Source: Spirochaetaceae bacterium (lineage in GTDB: Bacteria; Spirochaetota; Spirochaetia; DSM-2461). Taken from it: DNA of 64,000 nt. Below, one piece after another: positions 20,830 through 26,009 of the stretch. Under the pieces are notes generated by a model that did no database searches, was not told the origin of the DNA, and worked only from the letters and a program-made list of their open reading frames with translations. Positions within the stretch are counted from its first letter, which is position 1; each line of letters opens with the position of its first letter. Position numbers and translations under genes: made by a program. Location of the stretch: positions 128,001 through 192,000 of the forward strand of contig JAOPTT010000003.1 in NCBI GenBank assembly GCA_051531975.1. Reading direction: 5' to 3'.

Positions 20830-21750
20830 TCACTTTATGCCTATCCATTTAATAATGTCTCTTTTAAGTATATTAAATTCAAAAATATTCCTTGGACCAT
20901 GCTCCATTTTTCTATAATACTCAAATGTAAAATTCTCTTTATTATATTGGTCTTCAATTATTTTTGTCGACTCGACAGGACAAGACCAATCTCTCTCTCC
21001 ATGTATAAATAAAACAGGGATATTTATTTCTTTAATATACTCAATTGGATTATAGTCGAAAAAGCTACTCCATCTGGTATAAGGGTGACCTAAAAAAAAT
21101 TCTGTAATTGAATCTGGGTTTTCTTTTATATCTTTATAAACTTTTTCAGTTTTTACTAACATGGATCTATATTCTTTTGGCATTTTTACAGAAGAAGTTG
21201 CTAAAGTTTTAAACTCATCTAACTGAGTCATACCACCACCACCTGCAAGAATTATAATCTTATCAATTTGATCCTTAACTTTTAAATTATTATAAATAAG
21301 TGGTACTAAAGCACCACCATCAGATGAACCCATAAGTATAACTTCAGAAAACTTATTGTTAGATAAATAACTGTTTATGCTTTTAGTATAACTATCAACA
21401 AAGCCTTGGACTGTTGAGTTTTTTAAAGCTTTAGGGTCAGAATTGTACTCTTGTCCAGCTTCATAAAAGAGCTTCTCTGGTACAAGAACATTAAAGTTCT
21501 TTCTAAACTGGTTAATTACGATACTAGCAGAACTTACTGTTTCCCAAGAACCATCATCATCCTTAGTTCCTAATACAGATTTGTAACCACTACCTTCAAT
21601 ATATATTAATAACTTATCCGATCTGCTATTAGGGAAGACATAGTAGTTTCCATCTGTTTTATATACTAACATTCCTTTATATTTTACTGTTGAGCATGAA
21701 CTCAATAAAACACCTACAATTAATAAACATATTACATTTTTAAATTTCAC
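20830..21750 (-). CDS. Alpha/beta-hydrolase lipoprotein
   Basis: Lipobox LLSSC; GSSDGG nucleophile, HGERD acid and MEHG histidine; likely GTG start at 21750 after GGAG. Confidence 0.75.
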   Translation of the reverse strand: MKFKNVICLLIVGVLLSSCSTVKYKGMLVYKTDGNYYVFPNSRSDKLLIYIEGSGYKSVLGTKDDDGSWETVSSASIVINQFRKNFNVLVPEKLFYEAGQEYNSDPKALKNSTVQGFVDSYTKSINSYLSNNKFSEVILMGSSDGGALVPLIYNNLKVKDQIDKIIILAGGGGMTQLDEFKTLATSSVKMPKEYRSMLVKTEKVYKDIKENPDSITEFFLGHPYTRWSSFFDYNPIEYIKEINIPVLFIHGERDWSCPVESTKIIEDQYNKENFTFEYYRKMEHGPRNIFEFNILKRDIIKWIGIK

Positions 21751-21853
21751 TTTATTCTCCAATAAAAAATATTATAGAGAATATAAATTGCTAATAAATT
21801 ACAATCTGGTTACATATAAGTAATACATTAACTTTATTAGAATATAGAGGGAT

Positions 21854-22222
21854 TTATTGGTTAATAATTTTATTAATCTTACCTGTTAATACATCCAAAT
21901 CAAATATTGGTTTAAGTATAATGTTATTATTTGTTAAACCTAAAGAAGTCAATGTTTGCGGAATAGAATAATTATAATCTCCAGTGTGTATTAGAAATTT
22001 CATTTCTGGTTTAATCTTATTAATTTCTATTATTAGTTTATCACCTTCCATATCTGGAATATGAAGATCAACAATAACAAGGTCGATATCACTTTTTGTA
22101 GATATGGATAAACCTTCTGATGCAGTTGAGGAACAGTATATTTTAAAACCTTCATCTTCCAATAACATTTCTAATGATATACGAATGGATTCATCATCAT
22201 CAATTATTAAAATATGTTTCAT
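21854..22222 (-). CDS. Single-domain response regulator (receiver only)
   Basis: IIDDD, VDLHIP (phospho-Asp), HTG and KP motifs; no output domain. Confidence 0.9.
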   Translation of the reverse strand: MKHILIIDDDESIRISLEMLLEDEGFKIYCSSTASEGLSISTKSDIDLVIVDLHIPDMEGDKLIIEINKIKPEMKFLIHTGDYNYSIPQTLTSLGLTNNNIILKPIFDLDVLTGKINKIINQ

Positions 22223-22323: not shown

Positions 22324-24264
22324 TTAAAACTGAGATTTATGTTTTATAAAAAAATCTACTCTAGGCTCAAGCCATTTAAGTTTATGGTCACTAGGGTTTT
22401 CTGTAAAATAGTAGATATCTTTAAATAGATAATCCCAATTAAAGAAGTCATCGTTAACATTTAGATAATCCTTAACCAGCTCTGTTCCTGTAGGGGCAAC
22501 AGGATGTAAAAGAAATATAGCGGTTCTTAACATATGGAAAATATCTATAAGTACCAATTTTATATCATCTTCATTTATATCTTTTACCATTCTTTTAGCC
22601 CACTCTTTACTTATGCCTCTAATATATTTTTCTATATTAAACATAGCTTTATGGAATTCGTTATTATAAACCCTTCTTTCCCACTCTAATATTATTCTTT
22701 TTGAACCCTCTAAAACTTCACTTGATATTTCCCCATATGGTAAAACTCCATCAAAGTATTTTTGAGTTGTGTAAAAACAGGAACGACAGATTCTATTTAA
22801 AACATTACTTAATAGATTACCCTCTTTTAAAACCGGATCTGCATCTTTCTCTTTTGCTTCTTTATTAAAAGGCTTAGGGTTAAAATTTATTGGTCGCATA
22901 CCAAGACCTAGGGCAAAAAAATGAGCTCGCAACTGGTCTGGGGTATAATGCTCTAATAAGTCCAGAGCCATTATTGGTTTTATCTCGCCAGAAGATGAAG
23001 CTTTTCGATTACCTTGAAGAAGATGACAATTGGCTATTAATTTTGGAAATTGTAACTTTCGACCTTCTAAGCCCATAAATAAAGACATCTCAGCAAGACT
23101 ATAAAAAAAGATATTATCCTCTCCCATAAACTGATAAACAGTAGAATCTTCTGAAGACCACCAATCCTCAACCTTATTTGAACTAAGACTATGAGACTCT
23201 AGATAACATTTTGTAAATGAAATTGGTGCCCATAAAGATTCAGGCCAAACCCAAAATGTTAAATCCTTTAATCCATCAATCTCTGGGACATTTATACTCC
23301 ACTCTATATTTCCTGTTATTCTAAATGGAGTAAGGGTTTTTCCTGCTCTAAAACGTAACCCCTCCCTGTTTAATATTTCTACTGCTAACTCTCTTTGTTC
23401 TAGTGATGTGAAAATTAAAGATATTGATTTTTTATCTTCCTTTGTTTCATGGCCTGGAAGTTTACCTTTAATTAGTTCTAGTGCTTCTTTACTTTCGTTT
23501 TTAATATAAACAACAGGAGGTTCTAAGAACTCTTTAATTGTAGAAATTACATGTCGCCTACTATCAGATCTATTTTCTATTTTATTAACCCACTGGATTA
23601 ATTCGTTTTTAAAGTTATTAGGATCAATATACCAGTTAGTAACCTCCTTCATTTCTGGAGGTTCCCCAGATAATATACTTGTTGGATTAATTAAATCTTT
23701 TGGATCATAGGGGTGCCCCATTTCACACTCATCAGCATATGCCTTTTCTGACTTACAACCTGGCACAGGACACATCCCTATAACCTGTCGCCCATTTAAA
23801 AATGAGTTTAATTTTTTGTCAAAGAATTGAGCAGCTGAACGTTTATGTAGGTGCCCATTTTGATATAACTCAGTTAAAACATCAGAGCTTAATTGTTTAT
23901 GTATCTCCCCAGGTCTTCCAAAAGCTGAAGTATAATAGGATTCTGTAGAAATGTTAAAAGCTTCTAAAGCTACTTTCTGATTATTATGATTAAACAAAAT
24001 AAACTCTTCTAATGAACCACTGAATTCACCGCTTTTTATCTGTTTTTTGTAATATTCAATAATTGGAGAGCCGTAACAATCTGTTCCAGAGACAAAAATT
24101 ACATTATCTTTACCTAATCTATCCTGGAGAAACCTTTTATATATGTCTGCATGTACAAAGACACCTCCAATGTGCCCTAAATGTAAACTTTTATTGCCAT
24201 ATGGCATCCCAGCTGTAACTACTGCTCTAATAGGAAATTCTGGTCTAGAATTATCTACTCTCAT
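22324..24264 (-). CDS. Class I aminoacyl-tRNA-synthetase-like protein, divergent methionyl-tRNA synthetase paralogue
   Basis: TAGMPYGN...HLGH (HIGH motif), SGTD, Zn-knuckle CPVPGC...CEMGH, FWVW, GEDNIFF, KASSS in place of KMSKS, helical anticodon domain; AGGAG RBS. Symbol withheld because its specificity is doubtful. Confidence 0.85.
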   Translation of the reverse strand: MRVDNSRPEFPIRAVVTAGMPYGNKSLHLGHIGGVFVHADIYKRFLQDRLGKDNVIFVSGTDCYGSPIIEYYKKQIKSGEFSGSLEEFILFNHNNQKVALEAFNISTESYYTSAFGRPGEIHKQLSSDVLTELYQNGHLHKRSAAQFFDKKLNSFLNGRQVIGMCPVPGCKSEKAYADECEMGHPYDPKDLINPTSILSGEPPEMKEVTNWYIDPNNFKNELIQWVNKIENRSDSRRHVISTIKEFLEPPVVYIKNESKEALELIKGKLPGHETKEDKKSISLIFTSLEQRELAVEILNREGLRFRAGKTLTPFRITGNIEWSINVPEIDGLKDLTFWVWPESLWAPISFTKCYLESHSLSSNKVEDWWSSEDSTVYQFMGEDNIFFYSLAEMSLFMGLEGRKLQFPKLIANCHLLQGNRKASSSGEIKPIMALDLLEHYTPDQLRAHFFALGLGMRPINFNPKPFNKEAKEKDADPVLKEGNLLSNVLNRICRSCFYTTQKYFDGVLPYGEISSEVLEGSKRIILEWERRVYNNEFHKAMFNIEKYIRGISKEWAKRMVKDINEDDIKLVLIDIFHMLRTAIFLLHPVAPTGTELVKDYLNVNDDFFNWDYLFKDIYYFTENPSDHKLKWLEPRVDFFIKHKSQF

Positions 24265-24281
24265 ATTATTCTCCTAATTAT

Positions 24282-24316
24282 AAAATAAAAAAGCCCCACT
24301 TTAATAAGTGGGGCTT
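24282..24316 (-). terminator. Attenuator terminator upstream of the MetRS-like gene
   Basis: Minus strand AAGCCCCACTT-ATTA-AAGTGGGGCTT (11-bp stem) followed by TTTTATTTT, ending about 6 nt before the RBS. Confidence 0.92.
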
Positions 24317-24333
24317 CTAAAATAAACAATGTT

Positions 24334-24405
24334 TTAAGCAGCCCCATAATAAAGTTGTTGTTGTTGAGTTTGTTGCTGTTGTTCCTGTCTACTTAAATTA
24401 TTCAT
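24334..24405 (-). CDS. Gln-rich attenuator leader peptide MNNLSRQEQQQQTQQQQLYYGAA
   Basis: ATG AAT AAT TTA AGT AGA CAG GAA CAA CAG CAA CAA ACT CAA CAA CAA CAA CTT TAT TAT GGG GCT GCT TAA. Its 3' TGGGGCT is complementary to the terminator 5' arm AGCCCCA. Confidence 0.85.
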   Translation of the reverse strand: MNNLSRQEQQQQTQQQQLYYGAA

Positions 24406-24412
24406 TAACTGA

Positions 24413-24441
24413 AGTATTACATTAAAAATTTAGAAAGTCAA
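24413..24441 (-). promoter_or_regulatory. Putative sigma70 promoter of the leader/MetRS-like transcript
   Basis: Minus strand TTGACT-17 nt-AATACT with an extended TG, 7 nt before the leader ATG; no SD, so essentially leaderless. Confidence 0.6.
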
Positions 24442-24476
24442 ACATAGTAAAGGGATTGTAATTGAAAGGTTTTAAG

Positions 24477-25280
24477 CTAAATCTTCCTAACATTTACCAA
24501 TTCAAGATATTCTGAAATCCACATTTTATATGCAGGTGGAATTACTTCCTGATCGAATTTAATAATTATTGAAAGTAGGCTTTCATCTTCGTTGACTACC
24601 TCGATTCTTTCTATATGTCCTATCATCTCACCAATACCTTCAAGTCCTTTGTATTTCATGATTAACATAGCACTACTATTTCTTAATATTTTTGATGTGC
24701 ATCCAACAAGAATAACTTTAGCACTAAACATCGAAAGTTCAGTTAATATGCATCTTTTACCACAGCCAGAAACAAAAAGAAAGTTCTGATGGTTTTTACT
24801 TTTTGAGGAGCTGTAGAGGTCTTTATTTAAAATAAATCGCTCTTCTGCTCGTTTATGTAAATTTAACTGTTTTATTATATGGGAGCCTAGAATGTTTATA
24901 AAATCGTCAGGAACTCTCTTTGAAAAATCAACTAAAAAGAAATATAGGTCTTTTTTTTCTTGATTATACTCAGTTATTTCTGAAATTTTTGAATGTATAT
25001 AAAAACAGATCTCTTTATGTTCATATTTATCATTGAAAGAAAACATTATAGATATTTTCTGTTGTTTTCTTTTTATGTAATTTAACTGATCGATTGATAG
25101 ATTTATCAGAATCTTTGCACCACTTAAGGATGAAGAATATATTATGCATGAGAGCTTCATCCCACTACATTTTAGTGTTATATCAGCAGGACGTAGCCCT
25201 AATTCTTTAATAACACTCTGATTAAAAGTAATACTATGATCTTTATGATCATCATAGATCTGATTTAGTCTTCTATCCAT
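24477..25280 (-). CDS. PilZ-domain protein, spirochaete PlzA-like
   Basis: 267-aa two-barrel layout with CIIYSSSL in the N-half and RAEER (RxxxR) followed by ELSMFS (degenerate D/NxSxxG). Confidence 0.65.
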   Translation of the reverse strand: MDRRLNQIYDDHKDHSITFNQSVIKELGLRPADITLKCSGMKLSCIIYSSSLSGAKILINLSIDQLNYIKRKQQKISIMFSFNDKYEHKEICFYIHSKISEITEYNQEKKDLYFFLVDFSKRVPDDFINILGSHIIKQLNLHKRAEERFILNKDLYSSSKSKNHQNFLFVSGCGKRCILTELSMFSAKVILVGCTSKILRNSSAMLIMKYKGLEGIGEMIGHIERIEVVNEDESLLSIIIKFDQEVIPPAYKMWISEYLELVNVRKI

Positions 25281-25341
25281 TTTTACAGTATACCGTGTTA
25301 TTATGATATTACAATTAAATAATTAATTATCTATAAAAACA

Positions 25342-25391
25342 TTAAGTCAACTTAACTTTCTATTGACATAAAACTTAAGTCAGCTTAATAT
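25342..25391 (+). promoter_or_regulatory. TetR promoter with two palindromic operators
   Basis: TTAAGTCAACTTAA (25342-25355) and TTAAGTCAGCTTAA (25375-25388) around TTGACA-17-TAATAT. Confidence 0.75.
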
Positions 25392-25397
25392 TTAAAC

Positions 25398-26009
25398 ATG
25401 GACAAAACATTTGGTTTAAGAGATGAGAAAAAGGGTATATTAAAGTTACGAATTTTAGAGACCACACTTAAGTTATTAAAAAAAAGAGATTTTGATAAAA
25501 TTAAAGTCAAAGATATTTGTAAGATCGTTAATACATCTGAGGTTACTTTTTTTAAGTATTTTGTGAAAAAAGATGAAATACTTCAATTTTTTTTACAAGT
25601 TTGGAACTATAAACGAGAACTTAATATCTCAAAAAATGGCCGCCAATTTGGAAAAGACGCTATCTATAAAATATTTTCTGATATTTGTGAAACAGATCAG
25701 CCTACAAAAATTATGTTAACAATATATAACTATATTTCTCATCTTAAAGAGCGCCCTAAAACATTAGTTTTAAAAGATTATGAAAAGTATCTAATAGATA
25801 ATGAAAACCGCCTGGAATATATTTTGACTCTAGATGACCAGATTATTAAACATTTAAAAGAAGCCAAGGAAGATAATATTGAGGAAAAAGCTAAACTTAT
25901 TGGAGCCATATATTACGGAACACCATTAATATCTCATATAACAAGAGAGCCTTTAGGTGAATTATATATTAAAAACTTAGACCTACTATTTAGTAACAAG
26001 GAGAATTAA
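25398..26009 (+). CDS. TetR/AcrR-family regulator
   Basis: N-terminal HTH ...FDKIKVKDICKIVNTSEVTFFKYFVKKDEI. Confidence 0.9.
   Translation: MDKTFGLRDEKKGILKLRILETTLKLLKKRDFDKIKVKDICKIVNTSEVTFFKYFVKKDEILQFFLQVWNYKRELNISKNGRQFGKDAIYKIFSDICETDQPTKIMLTIYNYISHLKERPKTLVLKDYEKYLIDNENRLEYILTLDDQIIKHLKEAKEDNIEEKAKLIGAIYYGTPLISHITREPLGELYIKNLDLLFSNKEN

Follow-up and report, generated by a model that had tools for sequence, protein, structure and literature searches.

The window analysed here is a 64,000-nt stretch of contig JAOPTT010000003.1 of a Spirochaetaceae bacterium, and all loci of the window described below lie on its minus strand. A 212-nt gap separates a gene for a PilZN3-domain protein (25280..24477, -; Pfam match 2.4e-35) from a gene for a 646-amino-acid (aa) protein (24264..22324, -), and this gap probably carries a genuine attenuator that senses glutamine (Gln) and controls a tRNA-Gln-linked offshoot of methionyl-tRNA synthetase (MetRS). 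Read 5' to 3', the gap contains a promoter-like site, a 23-codon open reading frame (ORF) rich in Gln codons, an intrinsic terminator, an AGGAG sequence and the ATG of the 646-aa gene. The sequence supports reading this layout, with an enriched short ORF, a terminator and an antiterminator placed at the stop codon, as that of a leader-peptide (ribosome-mediated) transcription attenuator. Gln-tRNA(Gln) would be the sensed signal, because similar units in the same genome match the amino acids of their genes, because T-boxes in front of homologues of the 646-aa gene read Gln, and because the protein family to which this gene belongs replaces glutaminyl-tRNA synthetase (GlnRS). The elements of the unit are:

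24441..24413, minus strand: promoter-like site from a motif scan, consisting of TTGACT (24441..24436), a 17-nt spacer and a TG-extended -10 element (TAATACT, with AATACT ending at 24413)
24405..24334, minus strand: leader ORF read from the sequence, 23 codons plus TAA (MNNLSRQEQQQQTQQQQLYYGAA), without a Shine-Dalgarno (SD) sequence
24387..24355, minus strand: Gln-codon tract read from the sequence (codons 7, 9-12 and 14-17), the proposed stalling sites
24346..24309, minus strand: antiterminator hairpin from folding and shuffles, 5' strand 24346..24332 and 3' strand 24322..24309
24318..24282, minus strand: intrinsic terminator from scan and fold, 5' arm 24318..24306, loop 24305..24302, 3' arm 24301..24289, then a T-run
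24275..24271, minus strand: SD sequence AGGAG of the 646-aa gene, read from the sequence, 6 nt before the ATG at 24264
24264..22324, minus strand: 646-aa class I synthetase of MetRS descent, a candidate tRNA-Gln enzyme, from profile searches and alignments

An earlier sequence-only reading of this DNA had proposed a 23-codon ORF with nine Gln codons, and the ORF was found at 24405..24334 exactly as described; seven of its Gln codons are CAA and two are CAG. That reading had taken the mixture of CAA and CAG as support for the Gln frame and had considered the threonine (Thr) and asparagine (Asn) frames closed. This agrees with our analysis, in which neither the Asn nor the Thr frame over the CAA tract has a start codon past its last stop, and only the Gln frame has one. 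Short ORFs of this kind are rare in the genome: among 59,449 ATG-started ORFs of 8-45 codons, 16 are Gln-rich (6 or more Gln residues, amounting to 30% or more), and just one of these 16, the leader described here, has a terminator behind it.

The terminator has a 4-nt loop and a stem of 12-13 bp (13 pairs, 6 of them G-C, in the scan) rather than the 11 bp previously given, and folds alone at -20.0 kcal/mol. It ends 20 nt ahead of the ATG of the 646-aa gene, and both scan and fold place it at 24318..24289 with a T-run, in line with its earlier description as a strong intrinsic terminator just before the ribosome-binding site of the synthetase. Within 23800..25600 it is the sole terminator-like site, and shuffled sequences give 0.4 ± 0.6 such sites. 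When the terminator 3' arm is removed from the fold, leader nucleotides 60-74 (TGGGGCT..TTAAAA) pair with nucleotides 84-97 (TTTTAG.AGCCCCA) at -13.3 kcal/mol. The 5' strand of this antiterminator spans the last four sense codons of the leader and its stop codon, and the 3' strand includes most of the terminator 5' arm, which is the pairing that the sequence-only reading had predicted. The duplex energy is -14.1, as compared with -5.1 ± 2.1 in shuffles, and was reached by 2 of 2000 shuffles; the heptamer TGGGGCT, by which the 3' end of the ORF duplicates the terminator 3' arm, is expected only 0.002 times per 87 nt at the genome's own rate. The antiterminator pairing is not a product of chance. 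Folding of the whole 146-nt leader, an analysis that had been suggested together with the prediction, gave a z-score of -3.83, with none of 200 shuffles folding equally well.

In the mechanism that we propose, transcription would begin at the leader ATG or immediately beside it, and the leader start would be used by a 70S ribosome, which would translate the 23 codons. When Gln-tRNA(Gln) is plentiful the ribosome would reach the TAA and mask nucleotides 60-74 (TGGGGCTGCTTAAAA), the terminator arms would pair, and transcription would halt about 20 nt ahead of the gene. When Gln-tRNA(Gln) is scarce the ribosome would stall at Gln codons 7-15, TGGGGCT.. would pair with ..AGCCCCA, and the antiterminator would form first, blocking the terminator so that RNA polymerase could read into the 646-aa gene. 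If the leader were not translated at all, the antiterminator would be expected to form by default.

The hairpin is also the sole terminator-like site after the stop of the PilZN3-domain gene at 24477, and it could be read simply as the terminator of that gene, the Gln-rich ORF being a chance occurrence in a CAA-rich tract and the 646-aa gene having a promoter of its own. A TATAAT lies inside the T-run (24282..24277), the short ORF has no SD sequence, and the 15 other Gln-rich short ORFs occur in the genome by chance, all of which would suit this explanation. However, the T-run and the ATG are just 20 nt apart, a -35 element that passes the scan was not found there, the antiterminator duplex energy is rarely matched by shuffles, and the four sister units and the homologue T-boxes described below point to control by the matching amino acid. 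We give little credence to an own promoter combined with a chance ORF.

The promoter-like site upstream of the ORF shows 9 of 12 consensus matches, contains the TG element and ends about 7 nt upstream of the leader ATG. A transcript from this site would start at or beside the A of the ATG, giving a leaderless mRNA. Such a compact promoter-to-terminator unit might equally be an independent small gene, encoding a small RNA (sRNA) some 120 nt long or a Gln-rich peptide of 23 residues without any control of the 646-aa gene, and the unit has weak sub-threshold matches in Rfam to many sRNAs and leaders, which are driven by the terminator (best match 30.8 bits, cut-off 52 bits). An independent gene would, however, leave the 646-aa gene without its own promoter. 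Moreover, the end of the ORF copies the terminator 3' arm (TGGGGCT), which is needed by an attenuator and not by a peptide gene, and the units in front of thrS, tyrS, serS and leuA argue for control in cis. An independent small gene at this position appears very improbable.

The Gln leader belongs to a larger set of similar units in this genome (5.46 Mb, 31.5% G+C). All 698 terminator-like sites were screened for short ORFs that contain a single-amino-acid run, end at the terminator and have an ORF of 250 aa or more behind them. The screen gave 22 rows, six of which represent five units, namely those for Gln, Thr, tyrosine (Tyr), serine (Ser) and leucine (Leu); the 16 remaining rows were judged by eye to be C-terminal ends of genes, masked sequence or noise. 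The four sister units, with their genes named by NCBIfam models above cut-off, are:

Contig C14, 176837..176890 (L057:2338-2391), minus strand: Thr-rich leader MIINVKSTTTTTQTTTD before thrS (614 bits, cut-off 383.65)
Contig C10, 76628..76711 (L056:1429-1512), minus strand: Tyr leader MNISVANTNYYYYYNSLFFVRYKLQKL (MNISVANTNYYYYYNSLFF..), in which five Tyr codons stand in a row, with a strong terminator, directly before tyrS (325.3 bits, cut-off 113.8)
Contig C5, 435964..436062 (L055:1565-1663), minus strand: Ser leader MILNIFLNNLSISSSSSEF.. (..SISSSSSEF..) with 8 Ser out of 32 and a terminator 24 nt before serS (418.1 bits, cut-off 301.65)
Contig C14, 128759..128851 (L058:1560-1652), minus strand: Leu-rich 30-codon leader and terminator before leuA, the gene for 2-isopropylmalate synthase (563.1 bits, cut-off 532)

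In all four units of known specificity (thrS, tyrS, serS and leuA) the enriched codon specifies the amino acid of the downstream gene, and this agreement indicates that the organism uses leader-peptide attenuators. None of the five leader ORFs has an SD sequence. In the Gln, Ser, Thr and Leu units a TTGAC(A/T)-16/17-TAATA-like promoter ends 6-8 nt before the ATG (in the Ser unit TTGACA-17-TATATT, ending 6 nt upstream), the Tyr unit being less clear, and from this spacing we infer a leaderless mRNA arrangement in these four units. The Leu unit looks like a leu-type attenuator in leaderless style. The Thr unit resembles the Gln unit in its two-hairpin layout: its antiterminator arm starts 4 nt past the stop codon, and its antiterminator folds at -16.6 kcal/mol compared with -15.8 for the terminator. 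We were not able to identify a clear antiterminator in the Ser, Tyr and Leu units from truncated folds. Both same-genus thrS loci that were found (L095 and L096) conserve the Thr leader together with its promoter and the two hairpins; their leaders are MNKNIEFTITTTQTTTKI and MINRILITTTTTQTTTGL (TITTTQTTT and ITTTTTQTTT). The four sister leaders have no match in Rfam at E <= 0.01, and no Gln leader stands before the genome's canonical glnS.

The 114-nt spacer between the thrS terminator and the thrS start (L094, contig C14) holds a unit of about 22 nt (..CTGCTC.CCTATGCAACCAAGG..) in two copies. In the two same-genus genomes this spacer has no such unit. Tandem units of a similar kind, from which repeated short ORFs arise, are found upstream of a gene at position 63623 of contig C18. 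The unit may be a small repeat element.

The 646-aa protein has a class I catalytic core, with a HIGH-type motif and a match to the Pfam family tRNA-synt_1g (PF09334, 4.3e-65). Its earlier description as MetRS-like stands as far as descent is concerned, but does not extend to a canonical MetRS: the protein scores 235.3 bits on the MetRS equivalog NF001100 (cut-off 587) and 184.6 bits on TIGR00398 (cut-off 336.35), and falls below every MetRS equivalog cut-off. The GlnRS model (TIGR00440) and the glutamyl-tRNA synthetase (GluRS) model gave no match to the protein at E <= 0.01. The genome also encodes a canonical MetRS (789.2 bits), which is 22% identical to the 646-aa protein over 604 aligned residues, and a canonical GlnRS (699.9 bits); GatB was not found in this genome. 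Homologues carry the name 'class I tRNA ligase family protein' at NCBI and 'methionyl-tRNA synthetase' at JGI. All 21 other carrier genomes tested also encode a canonical MetRS that scores above cut-off. Given this co-occurrence and the T-boxes, which never read AUG, we rejected the possibility that the 646-aa protein serves as the MetRS of the cell or as a drug-resistant MetRS2.

Residues of the active site were compared across an alignment of 120 homologues, and counts were also made in 46 sequences. The HxGH motif is kept (HLGH; neither H28 nor H31 varies), and an invariant Asp aligns with E. coli D52. The KMSKS position reads K-A-S-S-S, with K421, S424 and S425 present in 120 of 120 sequences. 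Residues Y260, H301 and W305, which we take to shape the methionine pocket of E. coli MetRS, are all altered: in every one of the 120 homologues H301 is aligned with Y and Y260 with F, and W305 is aligned with E in 113 of them and with Q in 7. The Y and E at these pocket positions, Y388 and E392, could bind a carboxamide. Residues aligned to N391 and R395 of MetRS, presumably involved in anticodon binding, are kept in the 646-aa protein. The protein carries a three-residue insert, SLW, after a conserved Trp and an insert of about 60 residues (251-310), and is without the C-terminal domain of the genome's own MetRS. Downstream of its gene, on the same strand, are genes for a stand-alone response-regulator receiver protein (21854..22222, -) and for an alpha/beta-hydrolase-like protein (20830..21762, -).

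Homologues were collected from species-representative genomes, Clostridia genomes and metagenomes, mostly at 44-64% identity, with one partial match at 66%. A scan of genome contigs gave 18 loci at 44-54% identity and a metagenome scan 5 loci at 45-55%, and a phylum sample of 400 genomes added two more carriers at 51-58%; no Gln leader was found at the loci from these three scans. A total of 56 family loci (18 + 28 + 10) were scanned for T-boxes at the Rfam gathering score, and 14 of them have a T-box directly upstream of the gene and on its strand. The sequence-only reading had suggested a search for Gln-specifier T-boxes upstream of homologues, and the specifier is indeed Gln in all 14 cases: CAA in seven and CAG in seven, each followed by G. 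Two of these specifiers were read by eye, the search pattern having missed a variant flank. The neighbouring frames of the specifier (NCA and AAG/AGG) vary in meaning between loci, and the Gln frame is constant. In the UGGN bulge, N is C in 7 of the T-boxes and U in 6, with one unassigned. Bacterial tRNA-Gln has G73 as its discriminator base, and the bulge bases fit it. Since there are several near copies among the loci (L085/L087, L046/L091 and L047/L092), the independent cases number fewer than 14. A further T-box, on the opposite strand at L061, belongs to another gene and has a different specifier loop. With 14 of 14 homologue T-boxes specific for Gln, a Gln signal is expected at exactly the 646-aa gene.

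At three canonical glnS loci of T-box-bearing Clostridia we found no T-box. Clostridium intestinale DSM 6191 (G054) has on its contig C11 a canonical glnS without a T-box (238492-240060) about 7.4 kb from the T-box-controlled family gene (247446-249401). In four GC-rich relatives (L002, L003, L004 and L051), which have neither a leader ORF nor a T-box, a conserved motif ..CTATGG[CT]CTTAA..TCTG.TA.. is located about 60-110 nt upstream of the family gene, and is possibly a promoter or another control site.

In the supplementary table of a 2008 survey, all 12 rows for 'methionyl-tRNA synthetase' are Met-type T-boxes; Gln-type T-boxes occur there just twice, once before a hypothetical protein and once before a glutamyl-tRNA synthetase. 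The consulted part of TBDB places Gln among the rarest T-box specificities.

The distribution of the family across genomes also links it to tRNA-Gln. An even sample of 399 Clostridia genomes was scored for the family, GlnRS and GatB, with the following outcome:

39 carriers of the family: GlnRS and GatB 3, GlnRS only 1, GatB only 24, neither 11
360 non-carriers: GlnRS and GatB 162, GlnRS only 101, GatB only 94, neither 3

The family is anticorrelated with GlnRS across genomes, and is present in 11 of the 14 Clostridia genomes in which neither GlnRS nor GatB was found. Five of the 'neither' genomes, three of them of 0.8-0.9 Mb, were rechecked at E <= 0.001; they gave a weak GluRS-like match to the GlnRS model and no GatB, and each has a canonical MetRS and a family member. 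Among 11 further carriers (0.9-3.3 Mb), MetRS was found in all 11, GlnRS in none and GatB in two. A similar picture emerges among the 40 nearest relatives of the genome studied here: the family is in none of the 33 with GlnRS and in five of the seven without it, and all five of these carriers have GatB. The present genome is the only one seen among its relatives that has both GlnRS and the family. We considered whether the family might simply follow GatCAB lineages and rejected this, as 20 carriers are without GatB too.

Owing to the Gln leader, the 14 Gln T-boxes and the complementarity with GlnRS and GatB, the family is probably a large unnamed MetRS offshoot that is tied to tRNA-Gln and not to tRNA-Met. 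The sequence-only reading had named Gln-tRNA(Gln) rather than Met as the sensed signal, and its view is now supported by the four sister units, the T-boxes and the finding that the gene encodes a paralogue beside a canonical MetRS, of a family that replaces GlnRS across genomes. We lean towards a more specific interpretation, in which the 646-aa protein and its family would be a GlnRS derived from MetRS and hence a third independent route to Gln-tRNA(Gln). The enzyme would be the only such route in many small Clostridia genomes, and in the bacterium studied here it would be a second enzyme that is induced when charged tRNA-Gln is low.

It is also possible that the Gln attenuator is real and that the protein is not a GlnRS but a MetRS variant with another role related to tRNA-Gln or glutamine, such as editing, charging tRNA-Gln with a different amino acid that is converted afterwards, or the use of an aminoacyl-adenylate outside translation. 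The loss of the second Lys of KMSKS would be compatible with such a role, as would the retention of the residues aligned to N391 and R395 (given the roles that we assume for them) and the presence of GlnRS or GatB in 28 of the 39 Clostridia carriers and in all five carrier relatives. On the other hand, 20 carriers have neither GlnRS nor GatB (the 11 of the sample and 9 of the 11 further carriers), most of them with genomes of 0.8-2.3 Mb that still contain a canonical MetRS, whereas only 3 of 360 non-carriers are without both; the HxGH motif and the Asp aligned to D52 are, in addition, invariant. We consider a role other than that of a GlnRS unlikely.

Several observations weigh against the interpretation of the unit as a Gln attenuator of a tRNA-Gln enzyme. 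On the side of the leader, we found no SD sequence before the ORF, and its translation rests on a promoter-like motif which is itself not significant alone, the promoter scan having given 14 sites where 9.5 ± 3.5 are expected. A stall at Gln codons 16-17 would, judging from footprint size, partly mask the antiterminator arm. Transcripts reading in from the PilZN3-domain gene would have an untranslated leader and a default antiterminator and would escape control; there is no other terminator after this gene, and the hairpin may also end its transcript. Conservation, which the sequence-only reading had named as a way to refute the proposal, was not seen: a Gln-rich short upstream ORF was found at none of 58 other family loci, part of them judged by eye. 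This comparison has little power, because the nearest homologue of the 646-aa protein in the collections is 67% identical; the 646-aa gene was not found in the three same-genus genomes. On the side of the family, 42 of the 56 loci have no T-box, which means that regulation by tRNA-Gln is not universal in it, and KMSKS has lost its second Lys. Of the 39 Clostridia carriers, 28 have kept a known route to Gln-tRNA, as has the present genome. The genomes compared are related, so that Fisher values overstate the association, and many are incomplete metagenome-assembled genomes in which absence means 'not found'. Finally, in four related genomes of about 1 Mb without GlnRS or GatB, a tRNA with a CAT anticodon is located about 0.9 kb downstream of the family gene:

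L038:5372-5448, L040:5326-5402, L043:3108-3184 and L048:5299-5375: CAT-anticodon tRNAs, of the initiator, elongator Met or Ile2 type

Two main T-box surveys may mention Gln T-boxes before metS-like genes. Our literature search, which lay outside these two surveys (RNA 2008 14:717; MMBR 2009 73:36), found neither a Gln-codon attenuator nor a MetRS-derived tRNA-Gln enzyme, in agreement with the earlier statement that no described Gln-codon attenuator on a MetRS homologue was known. The consulted parts of PMC2494555, PMC7778990 and PMC3927822 describe no Gln-codon attenuator and no MetRS-like GlnRS.

Leader-peptide attenuation as such is textbook knowledge. What is new here is a leader built on Gln codons and apparently leaderless, one of five or more such units in a single low-GC genome, four of which stand before tRNA synthetase genes. 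Two unrelated sensors, the translated Gln-codon leader in this bacterium and the Gln T-boxes in Clostridia, would converge on one MetRS-derived family, which also fills the gap where a genome has neither GlnRS nor GatCAB. Should the enzyme charge tRNA-Gln, the accepted two-route picture of Gln-tRNA formation would be incomplete, the names 'methionyl-tRNA synthetase' and 'class I tRNA ligase family protein' would be wrong for thousands of genes, and the family would provide a natural example of a synthetase that has switched both its amino acid and its tRNA.

The closest known parallels are the attenuators of E. coli, where pheST (with its pheM leader) and the trp, his, leu and thr leaders combine a codon-enriched short ORF, a terminator and an antiterminator that competes for the terminator 5' arm. 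The Gln unit has these same three elements, and pheST too controls a tRNA synthetase. In contrast to these systems, the Gln unit would sense a Gln codon, has no SD sequence, is apparently leaderless, and consists of two hairpins rather than four segments. By sequence it belongs to no Rfam leader family, its scores being below gathering for Thr_leader (RF00506, 25.3 bits compared with 55) and Phe_leader (RF01859, 20.3 bits compared with 55). With the Gln-specifier T-boxes (RF00230) the unit shares the gene family, the signal of charged or uncharged tRNA-Gln and the output at the level of termination, but a T-box works by direct binding of the tRNA and does not depend on translation; no T-box model was among the 24 Rfam matches at E <= 10 in positions 23500..25500 of the window. 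The apparently leaderless start has its counterpart in mycobacteria, for which the consulted part of one report describes leaderless polycysteine short ORFs, located at the 5' end of the transcript, as amino-acid-responsive attenuators of downstream genes (bioRxiv 10.1101/834739). As far as that part goes, the Gln unit differs from them in amino acid, phylum and controlled gene.

The 646-aa protein itself compares best, among solved structures, with 1rqg_A (E 1.6e-38). It shares with the zinc-knuckle MetRS enzymes (P. abyssi 1RQG and E. coli 1QQT) the HxGH motif, the Cys knuckle of the CP domain and a helical anticodon-binding half. It differs from MetRS in its KASSS sequence, in the altered positions aligned to Y260, H301 and W305, in the SLW and 251-310 inserts, and in its co-occurrence with a canonical MetRS. 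Although it has no sequence relationship to GlnRS (TIGR00440) or to the GluRS/GatCAB pathway, its phyletic pattern is complementary to theirs, and its product would be the same.

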